Virus record (IMG/VR): IMGVR_UViG_3300021579_000001
Location: 2,404-66,403 of that record
DNA from: a virus
DNA: 64,000 nucleotides
Strand: one strand, 5' to 3'
The notes below the pieces were generated by a model that ran no database searches, had not been told where the DNA came from, and worked only from the letters and a program-made list of their open reading frames with translations. Within the stretch, counting starts at the first letter, position 1; every line of letters starts with the position of its first letter. Below are positions 1,823 through 29,531 of this stretch, in pieces. Position numbers and translations under genes: made by a program.

Positions 1823-2245
1823 ATGTCACAATCATTCTCAGTAGCAGGTCTAGTAGCCACTAGCCCACGACACATCATCACCAGTGAAGGCACAGCTATC
1901 ACATCTTTCCGACTAGCAAGCATGTACAGAAAGTTTGACCGCAGTCAGAACCGTTGGGTTGATGGAGAAACAAACTGGTACACCATCACTGCGTTCAACC
2001 AGCTAGCTATAAATGTTTCCGAGTCAGTCAGCAAGGGCGAGCGCGTGATTGTTACTGGAGAGATGCGTGTGCGTGAATGGGACAACGGTGAGCGTAGCGG
2101 TACATCAGTAGAGATTGACGCCGAGTCAATAGGTCATGACCTAAGCTGGGGCACTGCAACCTTCTTGCGCACAGTCCTAGTACGAGAGACCACACCCCCT
2201 GATGATGCGCCAGCGCCACGCCTACACCCTATCTCAGTAGCGTAA
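1823..2245 (+). CDS. ssb: Single-stranded DNA-binding protein, actinobacterial type, lacking acidic C-terminal tip
   Basis: OB-fold motifs FRLAS..R.FD....WVDGETNWY, LA.NV.ES.SKG.RVIVTG, VEIDAESIGHDL. Confidence 0.92.
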   Translation: MSQSFSVAGLVATSPRHIITSEGTAITSFRLASMYRKFDRSQNRWVDGETNWYTITAFNQLAINVSESVSKGERVIVTGEMRVREWDNGERSGTSVEIDAESIGHDLSWGTATFLRTVLVRETTPPDDAPAPRLHPISVA

Positions 2246-3620: not shown

Positions 3621-3623
3621 CAC

Positions 3624-3818: not shown

Positions 3819-3821
3819 GGT

Positions 3822-3908
3822 ATGTCACGCAGAACATTTTGGCTAGTTTATCTAGCCTGTGTAATCGTTGTGTACCCAGCAATAGCTCACGCAATCATTT
3901 CTAGATAG
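3822..3908 (+). CDS. 28-aa single-TM micropeptide (not in ORF track)
   Basis: MSRRTFWLVYLACVIVVYPAIAHAIISR; fills gap, upstream AAGGAAGG. Confidence 0.5.
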   Translation: MSRRTFWLVYLACVIVVYPAIAHAIISR

Positions 3909-3919
3909 GAGAAAACATC

Positions 3920-4180
3920 ATGGCAGTATCAAACTACAACGAGCTAAACGCTCACCGAGGTCACAAAGTACAGGTGTACGGATACTACACCGAGAGTGTC
4001 AGTATCGAGTGCGCAGATTGCTACGAAATCCTAGTGAGTTTCGAAAACGAAGAAGAAGAGCAAGATTCAGATGCTTGTGAACCAGCAGACTTACCTTGTG
4101 TGAATGGGTTTAGCTGCAAAAAGCACGAAAAGAACATTGACGAGTTGGTCGAGTACATCAAGGAGATAACTAATGGCTAA
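3920..4180 (+). CDS. Hypothetical Cys-containing protein
   Basis: AGGAG RBS; CADC and C-x5-C-x5-C. Confidence 0.75.
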   Translation: MAVSNYNELNAHRGHKVQVYGYYTESVSIECADCYEILVSFENEEEEQDSDACEPADLPCVNGFSCKKHEKNIDELVEYIKEITNG

Positions 4181-4364
4181 GTACCTAGTAACAATCGAAG
4201 CTTCAGCATTGATTGAAGCACGCAACCCCAAAGAAGCATGGGAAACCATGAACACCGCTATCGAAGGTGGCGCAGACTTAGGGTTTCACTTGCGAGCTGT
4301 TGGCTCAGAAGTGGAGCTGTATGTAGGCGAACCTGAACAAGTAACCGAAGAAGAGGAGAACTAA
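4173..4364 (+). CDS. Small protein, DpnD/PcfM-like pattern
   Basis: KYLVTIEASALIEARNPKEAW. Confidence 0.65.
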   Translation: MAKYLVTIEASALIEARNPKEAWETMNTAIEGGADLGFHLRAVGSEVELYVGEPEQVTEEEEN

Positions 4365-4367
4365 CAA

Positions 4368-4583
4368 ATGGCTGCATTCAACATCAAAGCTACTTACGAA
4401 TACGAAGGCGTAGTGCACGCTGACAGTGAGGAGCAAGCTAGAAAACTGTTTTGGCAAGAACTGAACAGTTATTACTCAAGCACTGAGGATGAAACAATCG
4501 AAGAAGTATGCGAGCACTGCGAGAAAGACATTGAGTTCGTGTGCATTTGCGACGAAGAGTCAGAAGAAACGGAGAACAACTAA
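4368..4583 (+). CDS. Small protein, DpnD/PcfM-like pattern plus C-terminal Cys cluster
   Basis: FNIKATYEYEGVVHADSEEQAR; CEHC...CIC. Confidence 0.65.
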   Translation: MAAFNIKATYEYEGVVHADSEEQARKLFWQELNSYYSSTEDETIEEVCEHCEKDIEFVCICDEESEETENN

Positions 4584-4762
4584 TGGCTAACTATGAAGTG
4601 CGTATCTACGAGACCGTTTACCACACCGTTGAGGTAGAAGCAGACAACAAAGACGATGCGTATACCCAGGCTTGGTCTGCCATCATAGATGGACCTTTTG
4701 ACGAGTATGAAACTAATTCTGATGGTTTCACTGGCAGGTTTTCTATTGAGGAGGTGAAGTAA
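4583..4762 (+). CDS. Small protein, DpnD/PcfM-like pattern
   Basis: Start at TAATG overlap 4583; NYEVRIYETVYHTVEVEADNKDDAY. Confidence 0.7.
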   Translation: MANYEVRIYETVYHTVEVEADNKDDAYTQAWSAIIDGPFDEYETNSDGFTGRFSIEEVK

Positions 4763-4971
4763 TGAACAACCACACTATCCTCGAGCTAACTAAAGTAATC
4801 CAAGACATCGACACCCTAGTAAACACCCTTACTAAAGACGAGTTTTGGTCTAACAACACGGAGCTTGTTGAGCACGCAAAAAATCTTACTGTGCACAACG
4901 AGGTACTAAAGAAACTTCTGTTTGAAATCTCAGAACCCACTTGGGTAACTATGCAAAGATTTGAGGACTAG
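4762..4971 (+). CDS. Hypothetical protein
   Basis: TAATG coupling, GAGGAGG RBS. Confidence 0.7.
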   Translation: MNNHTILELTKVIQDIDTLVNTLTKDEFWSNNTELVEHAKNLTVHNEVLKKLLFEISEPTWVTMQRFED

Positions 4972-4973
4972 AC

Positions 4974-5153
4974 ATGAACGGACTATACTGCGTCACTTTT
5001 GTAGGCGACTACTTCAATCTGACAACTGTGGTTGAAGCTGAGAGTGAAGATAAAGCAAAAGATTTTGCAGCGTATGTAATCGGTAGCCAGTATGGCTGGG
5101 ATGTAGAAGGCGTGAGTAACGAAATCAATGTAGAGCTGGAAGGAACATACTAA
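4974..5153 (+). CDS. 59-aa protein, DpnD/PcfM-like pattern (not in ORF track)
   Basis: MNGLYCVTFVGDYFNLTTVVEAESEDKAKDFA...ELEGTY; GAGGA RBS, TAATG overlap. Confidence 0.65.
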   Translation: MNGLYCVTFVGDYFNLTTVVEAESEDKAKDFAAYVIGSQYGWDVEGVSNEINVELEGTY

Positions 5154-5371
5154 TGAACATGGAACAAATGAAAGAAAAAGCATCAGAGCTAATGTCAGAC
5201 GCAGACTTCAGTTGGTTTGATAGTAAAGAAACCGACATGTCTATTGGCATGGACTGGGAAACCATGCAAATGGTTATCGTGGACATGGAGCACCCTGATG
5301 GTCCAAGCATTGAAGCCGTAGGAGAAGTCATTGACTTCGTAAAGATTTACACGGATGGAGAAACGCTGTGA
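5153..5371 (+). CDS. Hypothetical acidic protein
   Basis: TAATG coupling. Confidence 0.7.
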   Translation: MNMEQMKEKASELMSDADFSWFDSKETDMSIGMDWETMQMVIVDMEHPDGPSIEAVGEVIDFVKIYTDGETL

Positions 5372-5601
5372 GTAGCAACTACCCTGAAGGGTCTATGAAT
5401 GGCTCTGGTATCTACCAAAAAGAGTTAGCACAGTATGTGTACTGTGACTGCGACTTTGAAGGAGAAGTAGATACTGTGGTTGATGATTGGAACACTCAGA
5501 TGTCTTGGGCTTGTCCTGTGTGCAAAGAAGAGCACACAGAAGACTTGCCTGAGCAAACCCCTGGCGATTACTGGGAACAAAACAAAGGAGGAACAAACTA
5601 A
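5368..5601 (+). CDS. Hypothetical Zn-ribbon protein
   Basis: CDC...CPVC; GTGA overlap, GGAG RBS. Confidence 0.7.
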   Translation: MSSNYPEGSMNGSGIYQKELAQYVYCDCDFEGEVDTVVDDWNTQMSWACPVCKEEHTEDLPEQTPGDYWEQNKGGTN

Positions 5602-5834
5602 TGCTAACCTGCATAAACTGTTCGTACGAGTATGACGAACTAGAAGAAGACAAGTTATGCCAAACCTGTTGGAAAGCATGGGACAAATCGCGCATAGAAG
5701 AGCGTGCCCGTATCATCCAATACCTAATCGACAACGAAGTTTTGCGAAAGTCTATGTTCGGCAATAGCTGGGTAGCACTACACCACAGTGAAGGTTACGG
5801 CATTGACCTTGGGCGTAACTTTGGTGGGAAATGA
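5601..5834 (+). CDS. Hypothetical protein, CxxC...CxxC plus ER-x-RII module
   Basis: CINC...CQTC, EERARIIQYL. Confidence 0.7.
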   Translation: MLTCINCSYEYDELEEDKLCQTCWKAWDKSRIEERARIIQYLIDNEVLRKSMFGNSWVALHHSEGYGIDLGRNFGGK

Positions 5835-5959
5835 CATTGATAACTGGGTGGTGTCTTACGGGACACCACTCACAGTGTCCTGTCCAATCTAAATGGAGTG
5901 ACACAGTTCGTGTGTGTCCTTGCAAATGCCATGCCAACACAAACACTAAGGAAAACTAA
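5831..5959 (+). CDS. 42-aa Cys/His micropeptide (not in ORF track)
   Basis: MTLITGWCLTGHHSQCPV...VCPCKCHANTNTKEN; ATGA overlap. Confidence 0.55.
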   Translation: MTLITGWCLTGHHSQCPVQSKWSDTVRVCPCKCHANTNTKEN

Positions 5960-6223
5960 ATGGTTACTACAACGCAACTTGAGATTGCAAACTGCGCAAT
6001 CCATTGGAACGATGCCCCTGAGAACCAAACTGTAGATGTTACTTTTGGGTTTCTCAACACTCAAGAAGAAGCAGATGCTTTAGAAGTGAACCTAGACAAT
6101 GAAGTAGAACATTGGGTGTGGTTTGATGAACAAATCTTTATGTGGGTAGAGCGTTACCGCGGAGAAACTTTAGCCACTTTGTCTAATGAGTTTACTGTCG
6201 TAAAAAACTATACGGAGGAATAA
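5960..6223 (+). CDS. Hypothetical protein
   Basis: AAGGA RBS, abutting genes. Confidence 0.7.
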   Translation: MVTTTQLEIANCAIHWNDAPENQTVDVTFGFLNTQEEADALEVNLDNEVEHWVWFDEQIFMWVERYRGETLATLSNEFTVVKNYTEE

Positions 6224-6466
6224 ATGAGTAATGAAATAACTGTAATCAGTTCAAGTGAAGAAACAACAGGTTGGACACGCCGCATTATACTGACCTATAA
6301 AGGCAAAGTAGCGTATGTAAGAATGTACTATTCTGAAGGCAATGGCTACGAGACTTCTGCGCCTGATTTCAAAGGTGAGTGGTCAGTAGAAGAAACTAAA
6401 GAGTTCCATTGGTGGTTGCTCGACCACGATAACCTTTACCTGCTAGACGAACTAACCTCCTACTAG
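6224..6466 (+). CDS. Hypothetical protein
   Basis: GGAGG RBS. Confidence 0.7.
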   Translation: MSNEITVISSSEETTGWTRRIILTYKGKVAYVRMYYSEGNGYETSAPDFKGEWSVEETKEFHWWLLDHDNLYLLDELTSY

Positions 6467-6480
6467 AAAGAAGATAACTA

Positions 6481-6684
6481 ATGAATAGCTACACCCCTGC
6501 AACAAGAAAGTACTCAGTAACATTTGAAATGTTTTTTGAAGTCACTGCCGAAAATGCTAAGCAAGCGTTTTACGCCGTTGACACTCTTTTGGGAGAGCTA
6601 AACATTGAGCGTATAGTAGAAGAGTTTGACGAGTGTAGCGTTGAGTTCTTCCTGCATGAAGCCGAACTAAAGAAAGGTAACTAA
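6481..6684 (+). CDS. Small protein, DpnD/PcfM-like pattern
   Basis: KYSVTFEMFFEVTAENAKQAF. Confidence 0.6.
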   Translation: MNSYTPATRKYSVTFEMFFEVTAENAKQAFYAVDTLLGELNIERIVEEFDECSVEFFLHEAELKKGN

Positions 6685-6864
6685 TGGATAGCAAAACTCT
6701 AGAAAAGTTTGATGATTTTTTTTGAGTCATTGAACGAGCAAAACGGAGGCAAACTGTCTTGGGTTACAGTAACTGTTAATGGTGCCAAGCTTACTATGGT
6801 GTCAGATAACTTTGGTTGCCTTGAACTGGATGAGTTAGCGAAAAAATTGGAGGTAACAAACTAA
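6684..6864 (+). pseudogene. Small gene split by +1 frameshift in a T8 tract
   Basis: ATG 6684 and TAA 6862-6864 are 181 nt apart; in-frame TGA at 6723 ends the T8 run 6716-6723; removing one T gives a clean 59-aa ORF. Confidence 0.6.
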
Positions 6865-7052
6865 TGGCAAGAATTGCTAGAGCAGTATTTATCTACAACT
6901 ACGAGCTTGACGAGTATGAGGAATCACAAAACTTGTCAGGTCAAGCATTGATTGATTATGTAAAAGACCTTTTTGCAGAAGACATCATCGCAGAACAACT
7001 TCATGGAACAATCTATGAAAACATGGCTATCGACATTTACGAGGTGGACTGA
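6864..7052 (+). CDS. Hypothetical protein
   Basis: GGAGG RBS, TAATG coupling. Confidence 0.7.
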   Translation: MARIARAVFIYNYELDEYEESQNLSGQALIDYVKDLFAEDIIAEQLHGTIYENMAIDIYEVD

Positions 7053-7198
7053 TGAGTAACATTGACCTACCGCTACTCAAAAAACAGATTGACGCTCTAA
7101 GCTACCTACTTGACAGCAAAAACTACCCCGAAGAACACATTTTATGGGGAGCGTTGTATCTTTTAGAAGAAATCTACAAGGAGAAAACTAATGGCTAA
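7052..7198 (+). CDS. 48-aa hypothetical (not in ORF track)
   Basis: MSNIDLPLLKKQIDAL...; TGATG overlap, GAGG RBS. Confidence 0.55.
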   Translation: MSNIDLPLLKKQIDALSYLLDSKNYPEEHILWGALYLLEEIYKEKTNG

Positions 7199-7427
7199 AC
7201 CAGATTGCGACCACGAGTACAGCATAGACCGTTCAGGACAAGGAACTTGTATGGTCTGTGGCCACCTTCAGTTTGAAGAAACAGACGGGTACTTGTGCGA
7301 TTACTGCCAGTCAGAACAAGTTGATAAGCCTGATACTATGTGTCAAGGTTGTGACACCCATTATTGCGAGGAGTGCCACTACTCGCCCTGTGCAAAGTTT
7401 TGCGGAACTGATAAGGAGATTGGCTAA
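7191..7427 (+). CDS. Cys-rich multi-Zn-finger protein
   Basis: CDH, CMVC, CDYC, CQGC, CEEC...C. Confidence 0.7.
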   Translation: MAKPDCDHEYSIDRSGQGTCMVCGHLQFEETDGYLCDYCQSEQVDKPDTMCQGCDTHYCEECHYSPCAKFCGTDKEIG

Positions 7428-7717
7428 TGAGCAAACTAACTCGCAAAGACTGGAGAAACGACTACCCTGCCGATGTAGATAAGTGGCTGGCTATCTATGC
7501 TCAAGACAAAAATCTATTTTGGTTCAGTGATAGTGGTCACATCCAGCCTGTTATTGACGAACTTATCTTGCGTTTAGAACAAGCGGATAAGCGAGCCGAG
7601 GAACGCATTATCAAGCAGTTAAAAAAGATGATTGCTGGTTATGGTCGTGTCGGTTGGACTATTGAACAAAACGCTTTGCAACTTGCTATTGATGAACTTG
7701 AAAAGGACAACAAATGA
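7427..7717 (+). CDS. Hypothetical protein with ERIIKQL module
   Basis: AAGGAG RBS, TAATG. Confidence 0.7.
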   Translation: MSKLTRKDWRNDYPADVDKWLAIYAQDKNLFWFSDSGHIQPVIDELILRLEQADKRAEERIIKQLKKMIAGYGRVGWTIEQNALQLAIDELEKDNK

Positions 7718-8001
7718 GCAACAAGATGGTTACGGTTAGGGAACCACAACGAGTTTGTGACCTATGTGGAAACCCAGTTGATGTTTATGGCCATCGTGAT
7801 TGGTCAGCATTAAATGTTGGGCATCCACGAAGCGGTGAAACTTTGCCGCTAAACAAGAGAGCGTTTCGCTTTTTTCGAAAACCTTATCTGAATAAGACAA
7901 GTGGGGCACCTGAAAATGATTACCGCTCTTGGGAGTGGGATTTTCACGGTGAGTGCTTAGTTGATGCACTGACACCACTTATCAAAGGGGAGAACAAGTG
8001 A
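7714..8001 (+). CDS. Hypothetical protein (CxxC...HxxC), C-terminus LIKGENK
   Basis: CDLC...HGEC; ATGA overlap. Confidence 0.7.
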   Translation: MSNKMVTVREPQRVCDLCGNPVDVYGHRDWSALNVGHPRSGETLPLNKRAFRFFRKPYLNKTSGAPENDYRSWEWDFHGECLVDALTPLIKGENK

Positions 8002-8267
8002 GCAAGCATAAATCTTGGTGTCAAACTAACCAGTATCTTGATGGTTACTGCACCTGTAAAAAATCTAAAAGTTTTTGGTTTTGGCTAATCGCTCTTATCA
8101 AAGTGAGCAAAAAGTCACGTTGTTCTCATTTGAATCTTTGTGTAATCTACGGTGACAAGGTTATCTTTGCCACTCCAAATAACAATCGGCTTCAGTGCAT
8201 TGACTGTGGGAAATTTCTAGATGGGTCTGTGAAATCCGCAGAGTTGAGAAAAGGACAGAACAAATGA
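7998..8267 (+). CDS. Cys-rich hypothetical, probable fusion of two microgenes
   Basis: Internal ALIK|VSKK junction remnant; C-terminus RKGQNK. Confidence 0.65.
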   Translation: MSKHKSWCQTNQYLDGYCTCKKSKSFWFWLIALIKVSKKSRCSHLNLCVIYGDKVIFATPNNNRLQCIDCGKFLDGSVKSAELRKGQNK

Positions 8268-8518
8268 GCCTTCGAGTATCGCAGATGCCAGACGGCACTT
8301 ATTTTTTAGTTATGACTCAAGACCTTACAAAAGCTGAGGGAGTTAAGTTACTAACAGAAATAGCTATAGCTTCAAAAATTAATGAGGCAGTAATTGCAGA
8401 ACGTGAACGCATTATCAAACAGCTGGAACAAGCAAGTCTTGAGTTTGAGCAGTATGATTTCAATGCTGTTGGTATCACTAATGGGCTTATTGCTCTTATC
8501 AAAGGAGAGAACAAGTGA
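8264..8518 (+). CDS. Hypothetical protein with ERIIKQL module, C-terminus LIKGENK
   Basis: ATGA overlap. Confidence 0.7.
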   Translation: MSLRVSQMPDGTYFLVMTQDLTKAEGVKLLTEIAIASKINEAVIAERERIIKQLEQASLEFEQYDFNAVGITNGLIALIKGENK

Positions 8519-8691
8519 ACGAAGAAGAGCGTAACGCATTACTAGACATTACCCGCAGAGTTGAGCGTAACGAAATCATTGAACTTCTTTATGTTTACTG
8601 TGAGGCTAACCATTCTGCAAAGGTATGCCCACCGTGTGAAGCTCAAATCAGTTTTATTTCAGACAAACGCCGTGAAGCAAATGGATATTAG
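8515..8691 (+). CDS. 58-aa hypothetical (not in ORF track)
   Basis: GTG start in junction motif; MNEEERNALLDITRRVERNEIIELL...CEANH...CPPC. Confidence 0.6.
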   Translation: MNEEERNALLDITRRVERNEIIELLYVYCEANHSAKVCPPCEAQISFISDKRREANGY

Positions 8692-8701
8692 GAGAGAACA
8701 A

Positions 8702-8953
8702 GTGAGCGATAAAACACCATCTACTAAAGTAATCCGCAAGTTCTGGAGTTCGCAAGGGATTGTGCGAGCTTCTAAACGGAGTAAGCGTGAACAAGAGTTT
8801 GACCGTTGGCTAAAACGAGTCAAGGCTGATGCTTGGGATGCAGGGTTTGATGCTGGCGAAAAAGATGTTTGGATGCACGAAGAGAAACAAGACTGGGGTA
8901 GTGCAGACACAAAATGTATTCCTAACCCATACCGAAAAGGAGAGAACAAATGA
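8702..8953 (+). CDS. Hypothetical protein, C-terminus RKGENK
   Basis: Start moved to GTG 8702 behind AGGAGAGAACAA. Confidence 0.65.
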   Translation: MSDKTPSTKVIRKFWSSQGIVRASKRSKREQEFDRWLKRVKADAWDAGFDAGEKDVWMHEEKQDWGSADTKCIPNPYRKGENK

Positions 8954-9150
8954 ACCTTGACCGCTACGTACACACCGCTTCTTTTATGGATTACGCTCCA
9001 GACGGGGAGTATGTGCTAGTTGCTGATGTAATCAAACTGCTAGAAAACGAACATTGGCTATGTTCAGATGAGCGTGGCTGTTACACAAGTGATGAATACG
9101 GCTGCGATTGTAAAAGAGTTAGACAACTTATCAAAGGAGAAAGCAAATGA
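8950..9150 (+). CDS. Hypothetical protein, C-terminus LIKGESK
   Basis: ATGA overlap; HxxC...C...CDC. Confidence 0.7.
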   Translation: MNLDRYVHTASFMDYAPDGEYVLVADVIKLLENEHWLCSDERGCYTSDEYGCDCKRVRQLIKGESK

Positions 9151-9506
9151 AAACAAGAGAACAAGCATTTGAAGTTGCAGGACAAGCACTTGATTTAGCG
9201 CAAGACCTTGGATACGAAATGCACTTGGTCAATCCCGAACATTTGAAGCGACGCTATCGTTGGTTTGCAAATAAAACACTGCTTCAAGAAGTGATTAGTC
9301 GCCAACGTCGTATAGAAAAAATGTGCAAACAGGCGTATGAGCTTTACAACGAAATTTCAGCTTGGGCAGATGAACACCCTGACGAATACGCCCCACAAGC
9401 ACCCTGCCCTGAGTGTGACGAAGTTTGCTCACTCGAAGAGCTTGCCCAATGGGGCATGTGCCACGACTGTGATAACCAACTAGAGTATGACAAGGAGAGT
9501 AACTAA
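9147..9506 (+). CDS. Hypothetical protein with C-terminal Zn finger
   Basis: CPEC...CHDC. Confidence 0.75.
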   Translation: MKTREQAFEVAGQALDLAQDLGYEMHLVNPEHLKRRYRWFANKTLLQEVISRQRRIEKMCKQAYELYNEISAWADEHPDEYAPQAPCPECDEVCSLEELAQWGMCHDCDNQLEYDKESN

Positions 9507-9730
9507 TGGGAGAAGTAACTGTAACAATCAGCGTTACCTATGCATTTGCAGGAAAGTTTTTGCAAGACTACCTAGAGCAGCTAGACGACTACGAAGACAC
9601 CCCAGCACAACGTGAGTGGTTTGCTATAGACCAACTCATTGGGGAAGAAGCCCTGGCTAAGCTAGACCCTAAACACACACTCACTATAGTGTTCCCCAAC
9701 CTGCCCAACACAAACACACAGAAAGACTAG
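9506..9730 (+). CDS. Hypothetical protein
   Basis: AAGGAG RBS, TAATG. Confidence 0.7.
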   Translation: MGEVTVTISVTYAFAGKFLQDYLEQLDDYEDTPAQREWFAIDQLIGEEALAKLDPKHTLTIVFPNLPNTNTQKD

Positions 9731-9732
9731 AC

Positions 9733-9936
9733 ATGGAAATCTCATGGCGTAACTCTTCCACAACTAAATACTGTTTTTATTGCCAAAGCTTCCTAAATAC
9801 TCCACGCAACCCTCTTAAGGAAACAGAGAAAGGCAACTATGTTCACAAAAATTGCATTAAAGACTTTATGCGACTAGACTCGTATACCCCAGCCACTTTC
9901 AGCATCAAGCTCAAAACTAAAAGGAAGGCAAGTTAA
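9733..9936 (+). CDS. Hypothetical protein, CxxC...HxxC
   Basis: CFYC...HKNC. Confidence 0.65.
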   Translation: MEISWRNSSTTKYCFYCQSFLNTPRNPLKETEKGNYVHKNCIKDFMRLDSYTPATFSIKLKTKRKAS

Positions 9937-10211
9937 TGTCAGAGTACTCAACCGTTCTAGGGGGAACTCTTAGAAAAATACGTAAACTTCAACAGAGAAC
10001 ACTACGGAGCGTGGCCGCAGAAAGCCATGTTGCGTTAGGGTATCTAAGCGAGGTAGAAGTTGGCAGTAAAGAGCCGTCAGCAGCTACCTTGTATGCAGTT
10101 TGCTCAGGGCTAAACATTGAGCTATGGTGGTTACTACAGCAAGTAAGCATCGAACTACACAACACAACAAAAGGAGAACCACATGTTACACGACAACTCA
10201 TTTCCAAATGA
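9936..10211 (+). CDS. XRE-family HTH regulator, ClgR-like
   Basis: LR-x-IR...RTLRSVA...VALGYLSEVE-x-G-x-KEPS...L-x-AVC-x-GL resembles actinobacterial ClgR. Confidence 0.85.
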   Translation: MSEYSTVLGGTLRKIRKLQQRTLRSVAAESHVALGYLSEVEVGSKEPSAATLYAVCSGLNIELWWLLQQVSIELHNTTKGEPHVTRQLISK

Positions 10212-10557
10212 GCTATCTGATGCAGGTAAGCTGCTTTGGGTGGGGGCGTTAGCTTCAGAAGTAATCAAGTATGGTGAAGCAGAAGCCATGCTTATAGACG
10301 CTATCAACCTTTCAGATTCTCAATCCGATGCGATTGTAAAAGCTAACGCTATGCTTTGCTCTTACGCACTCACCTTGACCCACATTCAAGAAACAAAAAA
10401 CGTAGCGTTAGCAAACGTAGTCATTGAGATGTGGAACTCTAACATGATGCAAGAGGTCATAGCGTATGCGTTTGAAGAAGAAATAACAGATGCCAAAGAA
10501 AAAATGGCTGAGTCAATCAACGCAATCGAAGCACTAATCAACCAACAGACAAGTTAG
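10183..10557 (+). CDS. Hypothetical helical protein
   Basis: AAAGGAG RBS. Confidence 0.75.
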   Translation: MLHDNSFPNELSDAGKLLWVGALASEVIKYGEAEAMLIDAINLSDSQSDAIVKANAMLCSYALTLTHIQETKNVALANVVIEMWNSNMMQEVIAYAFEEEITDAKEKMAESINAIEALINQQTS

Positions 10558-10565
10558 GAGCCAGC

Positions 10566-10790
10566 ATGTCTGGTAGAAAAGACGTAGAAGTCTTAGTACA
10601 AAAGGCTAGGGAACAAGGATGGACTGTGACTAAAACAAAGGGCAGCCATTACAAATGGGTCAGTCCTTTGGGGGGTCTGTTCTTTTCCACATCAACTCCC
10701 TCAGACTTCAGGGCCATCGACAACCTAAAACGTGACATGAAACGTTACGGGTTTATTGAAATCACAAAGAAAGGTAGGCGCTCACGATGA
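10566..10790 (+). CDS. HicA-like (dsRBD-fold) toxin/mRNase-like protein
   Basis: QGW-x-V-x-KTKGSHYKW-x-SP-x-G...STPSD-x-RA-x-x-NL-x-RD. Confidence 0.75.
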   Translation: MSGRKDVEVLVQKAREQGWTVTKTKGSHYKWVSPLGGLFFSTSTPSDFRAIDNLKRDMKRYGFIEITKKGRRSR

Positions 10791-11068
10791 GTACCTTCAA
10801 ACAAATGCACAATGCTATGGACGTAAGTCAAGCTGCCTGTAAAGACAGTGACCCTGAGTTGTTCTTCCCTGAGAAGATGACCCAACAAGCTGCTGCCGAT
10901 GCTAAGGCAGTGTGCGCTGAGTGCCCTATCATTGCTGACTGCTTGACTTGGGCAGTAACAGCTAAGGAGCTTGGCATCTGGGGTGGCACTACGGAGAATG
11001 ACCGTAAGCGCCTACATTCTAGCCAGGCATTAGCCTCCTACGTGCTGCAGCTTCGCGCTAAAAACTAG
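10787..11068 (+). CDS. whiB: WhiB-family Fe-S transcription factor
   Basis: AAC...DPELFFP...AKAVC-x-x-CP-x4-CL...GIWGG-x-T-x-x-DR. Confidence 0.93.
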   Translation: MSTFKQMHNAMDVSQAACKDSDPELFFPEKMTQQAAADAKAVCAECPIIADCLTWAVTAKELGIWGGTTENDRKRLHSSQALASYVLQLRAKN

Positions 11069-11073
11069 GTAAA

Positions 11074-11112
11074 AACAAACCCCCTGCCAGATTTACTGAC
11101 AGGGGGTTTGTT
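11074..11112 (-). terminator. Intrinsic (probably bidirectional) terminator between convergent early and middle blocks
   Basis: AACAAACCCCCTG..CAGGGGGTTTGTT 17-bp stem (one G-U on minus strand) followed by U-tract on minus. Confidence 0.85.
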
Positions 11113-11123
11113 CTATTCAAATG

Positions 11124-13169
11124 TTATTTGTTGTTTTCGCTAATCAACTTGATTTCACAAGCGTCTGTGGTGCAGTAAGCTTCGCCTACAGCATCCAGCG
11201 ACATTCCCTGGTAAACTCCTTCGAAGTCAATCGGGAACAACTGGTTGCCATACTCAGTGTACTCTTCCTCAGTAATCTGAGTGTAAGGCATCTGAGGGTA
11301 AACGTGGTTTCCCATTGGCAAGAAGCTGACAGTCTTCAACTGGCCATCGTACATGTGCAAAACCGTACCAACAGCTTCTGATTCTTTCTCTGCGTCAAAC
11401 GTAACCGTTACAGACACAGAGTTGTCTGACCAGTAACGCTGTGCAGTTGCAGCAAGCGACATCTTCTCGTAGATAGATACTTCTTTCTCCGAACGGCTAG
11501 CGCCACTCTTAATCGGGAAGAATACTACAGACGTTGTGTCTGGAGATTCTGACGCTGGCTCGATACGATAGTTAGCCATCTTAAACAGTTCAAGCATAGG
11601 TTCGTTGTTCGCAAAACGAATAGCCCTTAGGAAGTACTTGCCACCAGCAGTCCAGTGTACGCCAGGGCTTTCACCAGCAAGGATACTTACAGTACCTGAA
11701 GGCTTCACAGTAGTCATCTTGATAGACTCACGCACACCAAGCCACTCAGAGTAAGTAACGTCGTACGTCTTTACCGTAGCGTACCCTTCATTCATCCACT
11801 CACGTAGCACTGGTAGCCCTTGGTTATCTGCAAAGTTAGCGACACCTGAAACAGATGTTCCAATACGACGGTTACGCTGCATGATTGCGTTGGTCTCTTC
11901 CCAGTGAGTAGGAAGCAAGGTAACAGTCTTAGCGTAGAGATACGCAAACTTGAGAGTGCGCTTGAAGTCTTCCAAAGACTCGTGACGGTTCAAGTAAGTT
12001 TCTACAAGAGTGCACATCTCAAAGCTTTCTAGGCTTTGTTCTGCACAAGGGTTGTACCCTACAACACGCCAATCCTTATTATTAGGGGCGTCAATCAAGC
12101 GACCATACTGGCGCGAAACATCCATCCAAATAACACCTGGCTCACCGTTGCGGACGATGCCATCAACGATAGGTGAGAAGTCCGTTCCAACACAAACTTC
12201 CACCGAGTTGTTTGACATCCATGCCCAACCTGGGGCTTCAGGGTCATAGCTATTACGCTCAGGAAACCTTTCAGCATTTTTCAAGTTCAAGAAATCTTGG
12301 TCGTCAATACGGCCAATCAAAAGCTCCGCTGAACGACGCACGTTGCCTGATACAACACAAACACCAATGAGGTTGCCAATGTCAGCAATGTCTTTGCGAG
12401 TAAGCTTGTCTCCCTTACGTTTGCGGAACACGTTGCGGATTGCACCATGCAGTTTGAACAATGGGTCTGGACCAGAGGCTGTACCACCAAAGGTGGCAAT
12501 AGGAGAACCGTATGGACGAATCTGGTCGTAGTTAAACTCCCAAATAGGTTGTTCAGGTTTTAGGTAGCTGTTAATCAACGCAACTGTTGACTCCATCCAA
12601 CCTTCACGAGTGTCAGGGATTACATACTCTTGGAATCCTTTAGGCTCATAAATCTCAAAACCTTTATCTGCGCCCTTGTCATCAAAACCTACGCCTACAC
12701 CCAACATCGATGCTTCCATTAGGAATGCAAACGGCTTACCTGGGTTCTGCTGGGTCATTGCCTTAGTTGAAACAAACGCACAGTTCTGTAGTGCTGCTGA
12801 GTTTTTCTGAATGTTCACAATTGGGGTACCCATTACCCATAGACCGCGACCTGGTGGAGTCCACTTTAGATTGAACAAACGGTCAAATGCTTCTTTGGCA
12901 CTTGCTGCTGCCTTTGCGTCACTCCATGGCAAACGGTTCTGTTTTGCATGGTCCTTCTGTAGTGAATACATACCGTTGATTACACGTTCGCATACTTCTG
13001 CCCAAGTTTCCTTGGTGCCGTTATCTTTCTTACGACTGTATGTACGGAGGAATGTAATCTCGCCAACCGAGTTTCCTGCTACGTCTGCATAACCGAACGG
13101 TGGCTTCTTATCCCTGTATCCTGCGACAAACTCTGCCGCTAGTTGAAACGAAAACATCGTCATAACCAC
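11124..13169 (-). CDS. nrdJ: Class II (adenosylcobalamin-dependent) ribonucleotide reductase
   Basis: PPGRGLW, NC, GNVRRSA, NPCAEQ-x-L...CTL-x-E, RRIG, TVKPSGTVS, C-terminal CxxxxC. Confidence 0.95.
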   Translation of the reverse strand: MVMTMFSFQLAAEFVAGYRDKKPPFGYADVAGNSVGEITFLRTYSRKKDNGTKETWAEVCERVINGMYSLQKDHAKQNRLPWSDAKAAASAKEAFDRLFNLKWTPPGRGLWVMGTPIVNIQKNSAALQNCAFVSTKAMTQQNPGKPFAFLMEASMLGVGVGFDDKGADKGFEIYEPKGFQEYVIPDTREGWMESTVALINSYLKPEQPIWEFNYDQIRPYGSPIATFGGTASGPDPLFKLHGAIRNVFRKRKGDKLTRKDIADIGNLIGVCVVSGNVRRSAELLIGRIDDQDFLNLKNAERFPERNSYDPEAPGWAWMSNNSVEVCVGTDFSPIVDGIVRNGEPGVIWMDVSRQYGRLIDAPNNKDWRVVGYNPCAEQSLESFEMCTLVETYLNRHESLEDFKRTLKFAYLYAKTVTLLPTHWEETNAIMQRNRRIGTSVSGVANFADNQGLPVLREWMNEGYATVKTYDVTYSEWLGVRESIKMTTVKPSGTVSILAGESPGVHWTAGGKYFLRAIRFANNEPMLELFKMANYRIEPASESPDTTSVVFFPIKSGASRSEKEVSIYEKMSLAATAQRYWSDNSVSVTVTFDAEKESEAVGTVLHMYDGQLKTVSFLPMGNHVYPQMPYTQITEEEYTEYGNQLFPIDFEGVYQGMSLDAVGEAYCTTDACEIKLISENNK

Positions 13170-24632: not shown

Positions 24633-25229
24633 TTAATCCCGTACAGAATCCCTAAACTTAGGGTCAGTTAGCTTTTTAAGGATTGCCCGCTCATCTTGGT
24701 CTAGGCAGTACTCAGAAGCAATTCGAGCCAAACCATAGGCATCTGCCGCGTTGTTGTCGGTCAGCTCTACTCCATATTTTTTGTACACATTAAGCAACAT
24801 CACGTCTTTTGTGGCAGTACCTTTTCCACTAACAAACTTTTTTAGTGTCATTGGAGGAACCTGCAGGGGAGTGCGAAGTAGCTGGTTGGGGTGAGTAGGT
24901 CCGAAGACAGTAAACAGGGTGAGCTTTACTACGCCAGCGAGTTCTCCTAGAACGGTAGCTGCTTGGCTATGAAGGACTGAGCCCTCCATAGCAATGTCGT
25001 AAACATCGTTAACGTTACCTTCTAAGAAGTCAAACTTAGAAGCAACCCACTCTGAAATGTCTGCTAGTCGTTGAACGCCTCGGTAGGGGGATGAATACAC
25101 CCATGTTTCGTGATTTTCAGGACGAGCAATCTCAACTGCGGACATTGCAAACCCTGTCAGGGATTGGTCAATCCCAATCCCCACAGGTACTCCTGGGGTT
25201 AGACCACCATCAAAAACTTTTTCAGACAT
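24633..25229 (-). CDS. ruvC: RuvC-like Holliday junction resolvase
   Basis: GIDQSLTG, IAMEG, P-x-TLKKFVSG-x-G-x-A-x-K, DNNAADA; start moved to 25229. Confidence 0.88.
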   Translation of the reverse strand: MSEKVFDGGLTPGVPVGIGIDQSLTGFAMSAVEIARPENHETWVYSSPYRGVQRLADISEWVASKFDFLEGNVNDVYDIAMEGSVLHSQAATVLGELAGVVKLTLFTVFGPTHPNQLLRTPLQVPPMTLKKFVSGKGTATKDVMLLNVYKKYGVELTDNNAADAYGLARIASEYCLDQDERAILKKLTDPKFRDSVRD

Positions 25230-25767
25230 TTTCAGGAACCTTAAGGTCAGCCATATCATGTAGCTCTGCGATGGGCACTGCGTAGTTTCCTACACCATAC
25301 GGCATCATGTGGCGAATGTCTGCGCACTCACTTCCTCGCATCCACCCAACTGCACGGAAAGCTGGGGCTTTGTACCCATCGGCAGGATTACGTCGGGTCT
25401 TTTGCTCAGGCCCACCCACGATAAGAATGTACGTTTCATCAGGGCTATCCACACCATCCTTATACCGCAAAGACCACTTAGGATATCCAGGAATGTCTTT
25501 TGTAAAAGAGTATCGCACCTCAAAACCTGGGATGTCTAGCTTGTTTTTAAAGGTGTTTACGTGTGGCTCAAAGTCATTCATGCCAAGCATACGGGCAGCC
25601 GCAATCTCAGAAGCTGCACAAATCATGTGCTGCCAAGCTTCCCAAATGTCTCCTTCACTGTAGTTACGGTTACGCTCAGGTTGACCAAGCATAGGAAGTT
25701 GACGTTCCCAGCCTACCCTTGCTGCTAGGGCCTCTTCTTCGGCAGTCAGTTGATAAATCCAGCTCAT
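25222..25767 (-). CDS. Hypothetical protein, possibly PD-(D/E)xK-like
   Basis: G/A-x-x-x-E-x-AAA...D...EVR pattern, weak. Confidence 0.6.
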   Translation of the reverse strand: MSWIYQLTAEEEALAARVGWERQLPMLGQPERNRNYSEGDIWEAWQHMICAASEIAAARMLGMNDFEPHVNTFKNKLDIPGFEVRYSFTKDIPGYPKWSLRYKDGVDSPDETYILIVGGPEQKTRRNPADGYKAPAFRAVGWMRGSECADIRHMMPYGVGNYAVPIAELHDMADLKVPENV

Positions 25768-26315: not shown

Positions 26316-26773
26316 TAGAACGCATCCTTCCTGAATGTGCGTGAGTCATTAGAGCGTCGTGTGATTTCACGGCTTACTAGCGATAGGTCACGTTCGTAGT
26401 TTTGCAAAAGCATTTCCACGAGTTTTCGATATGCGTACTTTTCTTCGTACTCAACATCTAAGTCATGAATGTCTTGGTTAGCAGCAATCTCCGCCTTGAT
26501 GGCGGTGACCCTCTCGCCCTTTACCTGAGCTCCCATGCGTTTTACCATCATGGTGTTTTCTAGGTATTCCTTCTTCTTCAGCAAAGACCGCTCTTCCAGC
26601 TGGGCTAGTGTGAGCTGAGAGTTAATGTAGTCAGTCCAAGAAGTTAGGCGAGTAAACAACCCGCCAAGTTCTTCAGAGCCAATAGAGGTGATGTCTTGAG
26701 GAAGAGTTACTTGGTCGTCTTCGGGCTTAGCGAATCGTAAACCCCAACTGTTGAACTTTTCTACTGCGCTCAT
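26315..26773 (-). CDS. Coiled-coil protein, possibly UvsY-like recombination mediator
   Basis: Long heptad helices, C-terminal SREITRR; located in recombination cluster. Confidence 0.5.
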   Translation of the reverse strand: MSAVEKFNSWGLRFAKPEDDQVTLPQDITSIGSEELGGLFTRLTSWTDYINSQLTLAQLEERSLLKKKEYLENTMMVKRMGAQVKGERVTAIKAEIAANQDIHDLDVEYEEKYAYRKLVEMLLQNYERDLSLVSREITRRSNDSRTFRKDAF

Positions 26774-27621
26774 TAGTCCTCCTTGTATGGGGCGCACTGC
26801 TTGCAGACTCCGCCTGGTACGTTGTTACATTTAGGTGCCACGCCCTCAGCAAGAGCATCAACTACAAACTGTGCTCCCTCGAAGATGTGAGCCACTAGTT
26901 CGTAGTCCGCACGAATCGGAGGGAACTCACGGATAGACTGGTCCGCCTTTAGTTCATATAAGAAAGTAATCTCGTGAACTTCGTGACCCATACGACGCAT
27001 AAGCTCTAGATACATTTGACCTTGCAAAATGTGAGAGCCGAATGGGCGCTTGATAAGCTTCCATGCTTCCATGAAATCTCCGTTAGCTTCCTGCATTAGC
27101 TGCGGAGCTTCAGAGCGAATAGTTCCTGGACCCACTGACTTAATCTCGATTAGGGTGTCTGCACCGATACCTTTAATCCAGCCGTCAGTGTGTCCAGCAA
27201 TACGTAGGTCATTATCAACCAAGGTGACTTCATCGTAGATGAGTTTGCTAGAAGGGGCGTCACAAGCCATGCAGTTTGAAGGGCTAGTTCCCCAAGTAAC
27301 ACGGTCACAAACTAGGCACTTAAATTTGCCATGAAGAACTCCCATTTCTTGGAAGTACTTTTGCCATTTTGCGTGAATAGCATGGCCTTCATCAAAGATA
27401 CTCTGCAGACGCAGTGGTGGCTTTTCAGCAACTTTAGTGTGCCCTTTTAGCAGAAAGTATGAGGCTCGCTTGCACCAGTCGCGCTTAATAATTTCAGAGG
27501 GGTGCAGCACGGTGGTGCTGCGGTCACCCACTGGACGAGCAAGCAAGTAACGCTCGACGTCTCCTAAAAGCCTAGTTGGTTTTGCCTTAGCATCAAGAAA
27601 CTTTTTTAGGTCCGATACCAT
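26773..27621 (-). CDS. Cas4-like PD-(D/E)xK exonuclease
   Basis: HPSE...C, G-x-AIH, GHTDG...IEIKS, Q-x-Q-x-Y, C-terminal C...CxxC. Confidence 0.85.
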   Translation of the reverse strand: MVSDLKKFLDAKAKPTRLLGDVERYLLARPVGDRSTTVLHPSEIIKRDWCKRASYFLLKGHTKVAEKPPLRLQSIFDEGHAIHAKWQKYFQEMGVLHGKFKCLVCDRVTWGTSPSNCMACDAPSSKLIYDEVTLVDNDLRIAGHTDGWIKGIGADTLIEIKSVGPGTIRSEAPQLMQEANGDFMEAWKLIKRPFGSHILQGQMYLELMRRMGHEVHEITFLYELKADQSIREFPPIRADYELVAHIFEGAQFVVDALAEGVAPKCNNVPGGVCKQCAPYKED

Positions 27622-28265: not shown

Positions 28266-28492
28266 TAAATCTGTGCGCCCTTAACAACCGTACGTACAGA
28301 CTCTGCCATAGAAATAGCCACTGGTGGATAGCCATTATCTAAAGTTACAGGAGCAAACAGTTCCTCGAAACGACGTAGAAGTTCAATACGAAGCTCTTCC
28401 GCACCTTCTTCACGAAGTTCTTGGCGCATTGACTCTTCGTACTGTTCGTACGCTTCGTGGTTAACGCTCAACTCACTCATCTTGCTCATCAT
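28265..28492 (-). CDS. Hypothetical protein
   Basis: Start moved to 28492 behind AGGAG. Confidence 0.7.
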   Translation of the reverse strand: MMSKMSELSVNHEAYEQYEESMRQELREEGAEELRIELLRRFEELFAPVTLDNGYPPVAISMAESVRTVVKGAQI

Positions 28493-29531
28493 TGTCTCCT
28501 TCTGAGAAAACCATTTTTGCGGATAGAACTTCATTGCGAAGCTCTTGGAACAAGTCTACATCTTCACGTACCGAGTTAGCAAATGCTTCACTGCCATTCC
28601 ACTTGCGGTCTTTGTAGTAAATCCAGCCACCTTTTCGGTCAACTACCTGCTGAATGATAGACAAGGCAACAACTTCTTTAGCGGTGTCAAAGTCTCCTGG
28701 GGAGTAGATGCTATGTTCTTTGAAGTAGAAGTCCACAGAAGCTACCTGATAAGGTGGCGCAGTTTTGTTCTTAACCGTCTTCATAATAATCTGCTGACCT
28801 ACACGCTTTTCGTTTTCTCCTGAGCCTGCCTTAATCCAGTCTTTACGACGAACCTCGGTGCGGGTGAAGTAGGCGTAGTCTTTGCCCTGTCCACCTGGAG
28901 TCGTACGTGGGTCTCCGTGCATTACACCAATCTTCATACGGTACTGATTGATGATGATGCCTAGGATAGGGCGTTCCGATTCTGTAAGGCTACGCTTGAT
29001 AGCAGCACCTGCTTTACGGAAAAACTTGTTGGTTAGAAGAGCGCCACGACCTACAGTCATTTCATCCATGCTCTTCTCGTCTTCTGGCCCTGGGATTAGC
29101 GCAGGAAGAGAGTCAATTACAATAGCGTCAATAGACCGCGACTCAGCGAATGCGATTACCGCATCGTAGGCTTCTTCCATGATGTTGGTCTCAATGACGA
29201 TTACTCGGGAAGTGTCTACACCACAAAACTCGGCATACTCTGGAACCCACTGCTCAGCAGCAACCCACACAGCGATGAACTCTGAGTTGATGCTCTGGTT
29301 GGCAGCAATAGTTTTAAGGGCCAAGGCCGTCTTACCGTGGCTTGGCTCTCCCACAAGTTCGTTCCATTGGTTTGCGGGGAACCCACCGCCCAGGATGTAG
29401 TCGTAGGTAGTCGAGCCTGTAGTAAACCGCTGAAGAAGGTCTGCGCGGATACTTTCCCCAACTACTACCGCCTCATGGCCCAACTTCTTGTTGATTTGTG
29501 CCATGATTTTTTTAGCTTCTAGGTTAATCAT
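28473..29531 (-). CDS. recA: RecA/UvsX recombinase
   Basis: TGS...D-x-ILGGG-x-P, GEPSHGKT, IVIDS, INQ-x-R-x-KIGVM-x-G-x-P-x-TTPGG, KNKTAPP. Confidence 0.96.
   Translation of the reverse strand: MINLEAKKIMAQINKKLGHEAVVVGESIRADLLQRFTTGSTTYDYILGGGFPANQWNELVGEPSHGKTALALKTIAANQSINSEFIAVWVAAEQWVPEYAEFCGVDTSRVIVIETNIMEEAYDAVIAFAESRSIDAIVIDSLPALIPGPEDEKSMDEMTVGRGALLTNKFFRKAGAAIKRSLTESERPILGIIINQYRMKIGVMHGDPRTTPGGQGKDYAYFTRTEVRRKDWIKAGSGENEKRVGQQIIMKTVKNKTAPPYQVASVDFYFKEHSIYSPGDFDTAKEVVALSIIQQVVDRKGGWIYYKDRKWNGSEAFANSVREDVDLFQELRNEVLSAKMVFSEGDNDEQDE

Follow-up and report, generated by a model that had tools for sequence, protein, structure and literature searches.

A 24-nt stop/start junction between early phage microgenes is probably both a translational-coupling site and a recombination linker

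What is a short repeat doing when it recurs at one gene boundary after another? The question is raised by an array of very small early genes in a 64,000-nt stretch of viral DNA (positions 2,404 to 66,403 of IMG/VR record IMGVR_UViG_3300021579_000001), the whole of which is termed the window below. The phage that carries the repeat is uncultured and probably actinobacterial. An earlier note on this DNA had observed that the array's genes meet at a junction repeat, and the observation is confirmed: a motif of 24 nt, CTTATCAARGGAGAGAACAARTGA (termed M2), closes one tiny early gene and opens translation of the next. Our reading, to which we give a probability of roughly 0.6, is that M2 is a translational-coupling junction that doubles as a recombination linker, functionally like the PeSLs of T4-type phages, a causal role that we infer.

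The 18-nt core of the motif, AAAGGAGAGAACAARTGA, sought with up to three mismatches, has 7 matches in the window against 0.12 expected. Positions 7701-9150 hold six strong junction copies (18-mer sites 7984-8001, 8250-8267, 8501-8518, 8688-8705, 8936-8953 and 9133-9150) and one degenerate copy, all on the plus strand and every one at a stop/start overlap between consecutive small ORFs; the prefix CTTATC is present at 7978, 8495 and 9127. The features of the array, including an intragenic island, M1, described further on, are these:

7427..7717, + strand: microgene of 96 aa, a degenerate member of the family described below (ERIIKQLKK ... AIDELEKDNK), with a weak junction at its end
7601..7614, + strand: intragenic island M1, ERIIK codons, an exact 14-mer in common with 8405-8418
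7701..7717, + strand: degenerate junction, EKDNK, ATGA overlap
7714..8001, + strand: microgene of 95 aa, Cys-rich N-terminus, tail ...TPLIKGENK
7978..8001, + strand: junction M2 with CTTATC prefix, GTGA overlap
7998..8267, + strand: ORF of 89 aa with tail RKGQNK, in which two cassettes are probably fused in frame
8094..8114, + strand: internal junction scar, a match with 1 mismatch, where CTTATCAAAG abuts the start-like TGAGCAAAAAG
8250..8267, + strand: junction M2, prefix CTTATC absent, ATGA overlap
8264..8518, + strand: microgene of 84 aa, a full family member, 98% identical to a cassette in the otherwise unrelated contig L087
8402..8428, + strand: intragenic island M1, encoding R E R I I K Q L E and differing from the family DNA consensus at 2 positions
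8495..8518, + strand: junction M2, exact 24-mer
8515..8691, + strand: microgene of 58 aa, a degenerate family member, with a TAG stop inside the following motif
8688..8705, + strand: junction core without an encoded tail; SD, spacer and GTGA retained
8702..8953, + strand: microgene of 83 aa from GTG, tail YRKGENK
8936..8953, + strand: junction M2, exact 18-mer core
8950..9150, + strand: microgene of 66 aa, family-like (VIKLLENE ... C..C.C ... QLIKGESK)
9127..9150, + strand: junction M2 with CTTATC prefix, 2 core mismatches
9147..9506, + strand: gene of 119 aa directly after the array, with a TAATG-type junction at its end

Seven boundaries had been credited with the motif; six of them bear it in strong form, but that at 7701-7717, ending in EKDNK, is a degenerate relative with a shorter distance from SD to start. 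Similarly, the encoded tails LIKGENK, RKGQNK, LIKGENK, RKGENK and LIKGESK were read correctly, but none is made at 8688, because the upstream ORF, 8515-8691, ends at a TAG within the motif. Beyond the window, a second plus-strand early cluster carries three further copies, at genome positions 84411, 84850 and 85045; copies in the genome are confined to these two clusters and are all forward. In the ORF at 7998..8267, position 2 of the phrog_23679 profile aligns at residue 29, and the scar at 8094..8114 looks, from its letters, like an 11-nt deletion of SD and spacer. Neither the second-cluster copies, nor this scar, nor M1 figured in the earlier note. Among related contigs the motif recurs at hundreds of gene junctions, in well over 100 of them.

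As a translation signal M2 is complete, carrying SD, stop and next start as had been claimed: bases -14 to +3 comprise a strong SD (AARGGAG), a spacer fixed at 5 nt and a start codon, GTG in about two-thirds of cases, in a 4-nt overlap with the upstream TGA. Of 264 copies, 253 lead into an ORF of at least 30 codons; on the upstream side 230 encode the tail, and in 10 the preceding ORF ends in another frame. The downstream genes are unrelated. A separate TAG-stop flavour of the junction (..CTAGAGGGAGAG..) was considered and dropped, most such copies having a TGA frame that is long and open and encodes LEGENK. In positions 1-11300 of the window there was no excess of promoters or terminators, promoter-like counts being below the shuffled expectation, and the plus strand of the array junctions showed neither promoter-like sites nor a terminator-like hairpin. 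The motif has what we take to be a resemblance to T7/T3-like promoters (..AAGGGAGA), but the constancy of its distance from start codons favours a role in translation. The array would then be expressed as a single polycistronic early transcript, along which ribosomes would pass from microgene to microgene by translational coupling.

Translation might be the whole story. M2 would in that case be the conserved 3' end of duplicated microgenes together with an optimal coupled RBS, with no part in recombination, a reading that we consider rather unlikely. The geometry of SD, spacer and overlap is as expected of a coupled site, and in unrelated contigs the 18-mer core is also found between genes, as an ordinary RBS. 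Paralogy too is real. M2 contributes the final seven codons (LIKGENK) to a family of microproteins laid out as an ERERIIKLLE helix, a variable and often Cys-rich loop, an IALIK helix and a GENK tail; CTTATC spells the Leu-Ile of helix 2, which that helix needs. At the DNA level 77 members were collected, and an HMM search found 1587 clusters (at 50% identity), in which the domain is almost always C-terminal and, among the top 150 matches, terminates in ALIKGENK in 93. AF2 predicts a helical hairpin (pLDDT 94) with GENK outside the helices. Pfam, PHROGs, the ESM Atlas and a text search yielded no named family or paper for these microproteins; tblastn with one 54-aa member against 50,697 GenBank phage records found no match, nor did megablast of the region against GenBank phages, nor a search for the 24-mer in 185,579 prokaryote genomes.

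Could the tail itself be what is selected, as a degron, localisation or interaction tag, the DNA repeat being its by-product? The tail's presence in so many copies and its near invariance across the family speak for such a peptide. But its codons are frozen (GGA 95%, GAG 91%, AAC 99%) exactly where SD and spacer are spelled, its variants GEN, GEK and GENE follow changes in stop/start geometry, and at 8688 the motif is kept where no tail is made; moreover GENK falls outside the predicted helices. We give this alternative, which the earlier note had raised in its degron and localisation forms, hardly any credence.

Conservation extends further than either the tail or the SD. In the PWM, information forms a block of 24 nt with sharp edges (-20 to +3), and position -21 is a free wobble. 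Among copies ascertained by the core only, CTTATC is present in 32 of 87, the Leu codon is CTT in 38 of 42 cases (background 0.19-0.25) and the Ile codon ATC in 50 of 53 (background 0.41-0.52). The earlier note was right that conservation 5' of the SD exceeds what translation needs, these synonymous sites being frozen, but it missed that CTTATC also codes for part of helix 2 in so large a family. The same holds for M1, the ERERIIKLL codons: at M1 and M2 synonymous sites are conserved across many phages, while the loop sequence between them varies in length and is unalignable. Where 0.2-0.5 would be expected, codon homozygosity at individual positions reaches 0.7-0.9 in M2 and 0.4-0.8 in M1; at a conserved Gly just upstream of M1 it is at background. 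Frozen synonymous sites at M2 and at a second, intragenic island thus indicate that conservation acts at the nucleotide level. Translation plus paralogy leaves unexplained both the frozen CTT/ATC upstream of SD pairing and a frozen M1 that lies within genes and has no translational role. Pairing of M1 with M2 RNA, or occlusion of the SD, was also considered and rejected (1.84 predicted pairs, against 2.22 with M1 shuffled).

Nucleotide-level conservation of this kind might instead mark the binding site of a trans-acting regulator of early genes: a translational repressor, an SD-cleaving RNase like T4 RegB, or an anti-SD small RNA. Such a site would account for conservation beyond the SD, for the sharp edges of the block and for the restriction of the motif to two plus-strand early clusters. 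The loop of a putative anti-SD small RNA can indeed pair with AAAGGAG of the junction TIRs, but the pairing is not specific to the motif: the same loop pairs with many TIRs and ordinary RBSs score equally, so that as a motif-specific partner it is a weak lead, which we set aside. No candidate protein was found, M1 and M2 RNA do not pair, and neither the M1 island nor the breakpoints described next would be explained; we regard a regulator site as improbable.

If M2 is also a linker, gene content should differ between relatives and the differences should end in the motif; the earlier note had proposed both checks. Content is not conserved, the array genes of the closest relatives all being different from those here. 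Contig L087 has only three short patches in common with this genome, at 97-98% identity; one is exactly the cassette 8264-8518, with both crossovers within M2 and identity stopping inside the motif on each side, and another ends at M1. A contig of 85.6 kb and one of 57 kb likewise have one 176-bp cassette in common. More generally, when a tract of at least 90% identity between phages meets M2, it ends there in 82-89% of cases, and when it meets another small-gene junction in 29-46%, a strong concentration, with the qualification that many compared loci were retrieved through the motif itself and that tract encounters are not independent events. Tracts reaching M2 were terminal in 238 cases and traversed it in 54, compared with 63 and 157 at other small-gene junctions (OR 11, p 2e-34) and with 46 and 54 at control junctions inside the array (OR 5.2, p 5e-11). 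An independent, metagenome-only replicate gave 85 and 10 at M2, 24 and 51 at other junctions, and 15 and 29 in the array. Tract starts peak at -20 and ends at +3/+4 of M2. M1 is less clear, its tract ends being marginally above the in-array control (p 0.07-0.13).

In a hypervariable region, such breakpoints might result from selection that keeps genes intact: under translation plus paralogy they would arise by illegitimate recombination, with only exchanges at gene borders surviving. It fits that gene borders of one kind or another account for 67% of all tract ends and that junctions lacking the motif also break, as the lower percentages above attest. Left unexplained are the odds of termination at M2, 5- to 18-fold higher than at other junctions of the same arrays, and the presence of the whole motif in both partners at about 80% of M2 breakpoints.

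Every relative compared is a metagenome assembly, and chimeric assembly at a common 24-30-mer could therefore have created some of the joints. At the extreme, the entire breakpoint signal would be an artefact of de Bruijn graphs branching at the islands, exact repeats of k-mer size, and joining different phages. Against this, the pattern is repeated in two collections and many samples and involves long contigs, such as the 85.6-kb and 57-kb pair, as well as a 91-kb genome that is complete and has terminal repeats; neither the conservation of codons nor the existence of the family hinges on how contigs were assembled; and final assembly k-mers usually exceed 30. A wholly artefactual origin is very improbable.

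By which enzymes, then, might crossovers at M2 be made? The genome encodes no integrase, in keeping with the integrase-free system proposed earlier: searches of the complete genome found no tyrosine integrase (PF00589), serine recombinase (PF00239) or reverse transcriptase (PF00078). The RecA and Cas4-like exonuclease noted before are both present, joined by a resolvase and an SSB:

28473..29531, - strand: RecA (PF00154, 7.8e-48)
26773..27621, - strand: Cas4-like PD-(D/E)XK exonuclease (phrog_2506, 1.7e-28; phrog_1706)
24633..25259, - strand: RuvC-like Holliday junction resolvase (phrog_159, 4.9e-22)
1823..2245, + strand: SSB (PF00436, 8.4e-19)

A length of 24 nt is close to the lower limit for RecA-type exchange, which speaks against the linker reading. 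Since the same island of about 24-30 nt recurs from junction to junction, dozens of times in phages that co-circulate, homologous recombination by the phage's own proteins would be expected there: RecA, the Cas4-like exonuclease, the RuvC-like resolvase and SSB would act within the M2 and M1 islands, swapping whole cassettes (M2 to M2) or sub-gene modules (M1 to M2). Every product of such exchange would be in frame and have a ribosome-binding site for the next gene, and the uniformity of the islands would be kept by repeated exchange together with selection for translation. Cassette exchange through boundary homology, as first suggested, is partly supported, by variable content, by breakpoints in the motif, by the lack of an integrase and by the recombination proteins listed, with the motif as a putative cause of exchange. 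An HNH homing endonuclease beside the second cluster (genome 83469-83915) was rejected as driver of exchange, homologues being present at 12 of 256 loci and mostly kilobases from the motif.

The closest functional parallel is with PeSLs, which in T4-type phages are intergenic and combine a sigma-70-like promoter with a terminator hairpin; exchange there is ascribed to homologous recombination by phage enzymes, with no integrase, and recombination between neighbouring repeats forms mini-circles (PMC2839356, PMC4122927). M2 resembles them as a short conserved expression signal between small, non-essential early genes of hyperplastic regions, at which the ends of insertions, deletions and replacements between relatives fall. 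Unlike them, it is a translational signal within the coding end of a protein family, has neither promoter nor hairpin, is shorter (24 nt), and is accompanied by a second island, M1, inside genes.

The boundary or linker sequences of lambdoid phages are short, conserved and located at mosaic joints; conserved sequences are not found at most mosaic boundaries, and the gene 67/68 junction of Island3 was the first mycobacteriophage example (PMC3029335). Like the lambdoid linkers, M2 is an island of nucleotide identity at joints of otherwise unrelated genes, and like that of Island3 it is a C-terminal coding end common to two adjacent genes; unlike both, a single motif is used at hundreds of junctions in more than 100 contigs, so that a breakpoint excess can be measured. 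M2 has two properties of a linker, identity between unrelated flanks and crossovers commoner in the island than outside it, the latter subject to ascertainment, non-independence and the use of assemblies.

The SAS of Cluster K mycobacteriophages has a 13-bp consensus, GGGATAGGAGCCC, favours ATG starts and exists in an extended form with inverted repeats (PMC3203893). Similarities to M2 are many: an asymmetric conserved repeat directly upstream of starts of non-structural actinophage genes, with an SD core inside; conservation beyond the needs of rRNA pairing; one orientation, before unrelated gene families; sometimes inclusion of the upstream stop codon; and absence from host genomes. M2 differs in sequence, in its preponderance of GTG and in lacking inverted repeats, and SAS has not been described as marking mosaic breakpoints or as forming the 3' coding end of a protein family. 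Integron cassettes (attC/IntI) are likewise small, mostly promoter-less, one-gene units in one orientation and delimited by repeats, but here there is no integrase, the cassettes are probably translationally coupled, and the 24-mer, read directly, is neither self-complementary nor an imperfect inverted repeat. Nor is this a diversity-generating retroelement, given the lack of PF00078 and loops that differ in length and cannot be aligned.

The origin of phage mosaicism is unsettled between homologous exchange at linkers and random illegitimate joins followed by selection, and clean test cases for the linker model are few, most mosaic joints being devoid of conserved sequence. M2 offers one, in that a single, defined junction of 24 nt recurs hundreds of times among co-circulating phages and its breakpoint excess can be measured. 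With CTTATC and the whole of M1 open to synonymous recoding, a part in recombination can be separated experimentally from one in translation. The junction also shows that an RBS can dictate the C-terminal residues (KGENK) of upstream proteins, and it has led to the definition of a phage microprotein family, very large and unannotated, in which the helical hairpin is constant and the loop hypervariable; its members may be host-takeover or anti-defence proteins. It is possible, and we propose it tentatively, that M1 and M2 together are the joints of population-level shuffling, in which N-terminal modules, Cys-rich loops and microgenes would be recombined on the constant helical-hairpin scaffold by RecA-type machinery. 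If true, this shuffling system would be a coding-embedded counterpart of PeSLs, diversifying at least 1587 clusters of early microproteins.

The virus record, of which the window spans bases 2404-66403, is complete (91,322 bp, with direct terminal repeats), and its DNA polymerase has its nearest counterparts in large Streptomyces phages, at only 35-36% identity. Plus-strand genes, mostly tiny ORFs, extend from the left end to about 13,500 in genome (whole-record) coordinates and again from about 83,400, two stretches that look like early regions. The first opens with the gene for a 572-aa protein carrying an amidoligase_2 domain; one for a protein resembling class-II glutamine amidotransferases comes next (genome 1289-4156 for this stretch; window up to 1753), and then SSB. 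The phage encodes a recombination set of RecA, Cas4-like exonuclease, RuvC-like resolvase and SSB, and no integrase, serine recombinase or reverse transcriptase was found in the complete genome, in keeping with the integrase-free system, equipped with RecA and the exonuclease, that the earlier note had proposed.

A run of small plus-strand genes lies within window 7000-10000, each start overlapping the previous stop as ATGA or GTGA. The junction motif, M2, is a 24-mer made of a CTTATC prefix and an 18-nt core (SD, spacer, RTGA); the core, AAAGGAGAGAACAARTGA, sought with up to 3 mismatches, matches 7 times in the window against 0.12 expected, and every motif copy in the whole genome lies on the forward strand. 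The features concerned are these (window coordinates unless stated).

Features of the array and its surroundings
7984, 8250, 8501, 8688, 8936, 9133, plus strand: six 18-mer copies (mismatch search, up to 3)
7978, 8495, 9127, plus strand: CTTATC extension
8264-8518, plus strand: full family member
7427-7717, 8515-8691, 8950-9150 and the first 35 codons of 7998-8267, plus strand: partial or degenerate family members
Genome 84.4-85.1 kb, plus strand: second cluster, three further junctions with tails GLIKGENK, AFIKGEK and ALIKGENK
10787-11068: WhiB-family regulator (PF02467, 2e-21)

The motif had been assigned to seven boundaries; six copies stand, but the 7701 boundary carries only a degenerate relative. 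The proposal that it encodes the upstream C-terminus also needs one exception: ORFs ending in the motif form one family, but at 8688 a TAG within the motif terminates the upstream ORF, so that the DNA motif is retained there without the peptide tail. The second early cluster (genome 84001-85065; L263:2001-3066 in the fetched locus) holds four more family-type microgenes, joined in the same way. Before it comes a 148-aa protein whose sequence suggests an HTH-HNH endonuclease (L263:1470-1916, without a Pfam match at E ≤ 0.001), and after it ThyX. Adjoining the array, a block kept in relatives (10183-11068) consists of a 124-aa ORF, a 74-aa HicA-toxin-like ORF (a weak PF07927 match, below cut-off) and WhiB, with an XRE-type HTH protein just upstream (9936-10211).

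Family members begin with an N-terminus that varies; then come G..ERERIIKLLE, a stretch of 20-35 residues that cannot be aligned and in many cases contains Cys pairs, and finally IALIKGENK. CTTATC and the sequence upstream of it are the protein-coding part of the motif. A 43-position profile, A1, gathers 1587 clusters (50% identity) and places the domain at the very C-terminus in nearly all of them; ALIKGENK is terminal in 93 of the 150 top matches. AlphaFold2 predicts a helical hairpin for A1 (helices 2-20 and 25-39, pLDDT 94), in which Leu-Ile would lie in helix 2 and GENK outside the helices. Neither Pfam nor PHROG offers a model for the family, the literature gave no match, and neither did GenBank phages when searched with one member. 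The 89-aa ORF at 7998-8267 resembles an in-frame fusion of two cassettes: codons 1-35 end ...LIALIK, joined directly to V-S-K-K at a scar (8094-8114) whose appearance suggests the loss of 11 nt, SD and spacer included, from between two AAG repeats. The phrog_23679 profile aligns to this ORF from its position 2, which falls at residue 29. Relatives likewise have read-through fusions containing internal ALIKGENK.

In 191 distinct junctions compiled from related contigs, position-wise information content is restricted to -20..+3, counted from the start codon, and the Ala wobble position, -21, is unconstrained. Bases -14 to +3 read AARGGAG, an invariant 5-nt spacer AACAA, then RTGA. The 3' tail of actinobacterial 16S rRNA offers a pairing partner for AARGGAG (compare Fig. 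14 of PMC3203893), and the R arises because either A or G can stand opposite U. The 4-nt overlap fixes the upstream gene's frame, and SD plus spacer therefore necessarily read K-G-E-N-K; where the tail is instead GEN, GEK or GENE, the arrangement of stop and start is different too (TAATG, for example). Of 264 motif copies, 253 precede an ORF of 30 codons or more. No promoter or terminator signal was found within the array, and we infer that it is read as a polycistron with translational coupling, the ribosome being handed over at each junction. A candidate anti-SD small RNA (genome ~88,620-88,745, minus strand), whose CCUCCUUUCU-like loop can pair with the junction AAAGGAG, is no more than a weak lead for a junction-specific partner: pairing is no better than at the phage's other ribosome-binding sites.

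Conservation exceeds what translation needs, as the earlier note had held. Among junctions ascertained solely by the 18-nt core, CTTATC occurs in 32 of 87 distinct copies, Leu is CTT in 38/42 (background 0.19-0.25) and Ile is ATC in 50/53 (background 0.41-0.52), a codon choice not explained by amino-acid conservation. Across 75 genes of the family the tail shows codon homozygosity of 0.85-0.97; the value is 0.4-0.8, against 0.2-0.5 expected, in M1, the intragenic ERERIIKLLE codons (roughly CGT GAA CGC ATT ATC AAA CTG CTA GAA), which have no translational role and never served for locus retrieval; a conserved Gly four codons upstream of M1 is at background. These biases thus define two islands of ~25-30 nt frozen at the DNA level, and the stretch between them is unalignable.

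The nearest relatives by ribonucleotide reductase (RNR; 82-89% amino-acid identity) keep the WhiB and HicA-like neighbours and share no array gene, so the array's gene content is not conserved; nucleotide similarity in the array region is almost nil. Three of these relatives (L008, L009 and L010, RNR identity 82-86%) have early microgene arrays (~12,000-19,000, minus strand) largely without the motif, the sole core match being in L008, and acidic C-termini (EEEEY, EDDEDE) are common among their genes. What carries the motif is thus a pool of cassettes rather than the phage lineage as a whole. Contig L087 matches this genome in just three patches, at 97-98% identity; the second and third are neighbours in L087, whereas in this genome one is at 10.7 kb and the other at 84.3 kb, in different early clusters.

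Patches shared with L087
Patch 1: 3' part of gene 7191-7427
Patch 2: complete cassette 8264-8518, both identity breaks inside M2
Patch 3: 67 bp of a gene from the 84-kb cluster, ending at M1

Gene 7191-7427 encodes a 78-aa protein containing ~14 cysteines, arranged in CxxC-like pairs; identity to L087 is 98% over the 3'-terminal 140 bp of the gene and does not extend to the 5' part.

Loci were then compared all against all: 83 IMG/VR stretches with the exact 24-mer, core-only matches and 118 metagenome stretches, each cluster of near-identical loci being reduced to one representative. Shared tracts, counted from 90% identity and 80 bp upwards, were scored as ending within 25 nt of a junction or running through it; the loci being ascertained by the motif, encounters not being independent events and comparison sequences all being assemblies, the counts are to be read accordingly.

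Tract behaviour at junctions (ending / running through)
M2: 238 / 54
Other small same-strand gene junctions: 63 / 157 (vs M2, OR 11, p 2e-34)
Other small-gene junctions within 1.5 kb of a motif: 46 / 54 (vs M2, OR 5.2, p 5e-11)
Replicate, M2: 85 / 10
Replicate, other small-gene junctions: 24 / 51 (vs M2, OR 18)
Replicate, other small-gene junctions in-array: 15 / 29 (vs M2, OR 16)

Breakpoints do fall in the motif, and the independent replicate, from clusters consisting solely of metagenome loci, is concordant. At M1, 60% of encounters are terminal, an intermediate value: p is 2e-5 when all non-motif junctions serve as the reference and 0.07-0.13 with the in-array control. The sequence around M2, which makes up 0.64% of the viral set, takes 28% of its real tract ends. 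Tract starts peak exactly at -20 and ends at +3/+4, so that in ~80% of breakpoints both partners have the whole motif; five tracts run exactly from M2 to M2, as cassettes, and another five from M1 to M2, as modules of 103-133 bp. That translation and paralogy suffice, selection placing breakpoints at gene borders, seems to us less likely than recombination within the islands: it accounts neither for the M1 and CTT/ATC codons nor for the excess of breakpoints at M2 over neighbouring junctions. On the recombinational reading, homologous crossovers inside the islands would swap cassettes and sub-gene modules in frame, and each exchanged cassette would supply the ribosome-binding site for its successor.

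Integrons and diversity-generating retroelements were ruled out for this array. The functionally closest systems are the PeSLs of T4-type phages, in which small early genes are shuffled by recombination of conserved cassettes, each with a promoter and a terminator (PMC2839356, PMC4122927); M2 is not a PeSL, since it lacks the promoter and hairpin that define one. In where it sits and in its SD content M2 is like the start-associated sequences of Cluster K mycobacteriophages (PMC3203893); it differs from them in sequence, and they are not known to be linked with breakpoints or with a protein family. The broader idea of conserved boundary sequences accommodates M2; such sequences are not findable at most mosaic joints, though in Island3 genes 67/68 a shared C-terminal coding end acted as homology (PMC3029335). 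At least 83 stretches in IMG/VR and at least 118 in metagenomes contain the 24-mer, which has zero matches in 185,579 prokaryote genomes. The motif is thus real and widespread, a coding-embedded, translational linker, accompanied by a new family of microproteins and by a connection, amenable to testing, with the origin of phage mosaicism.
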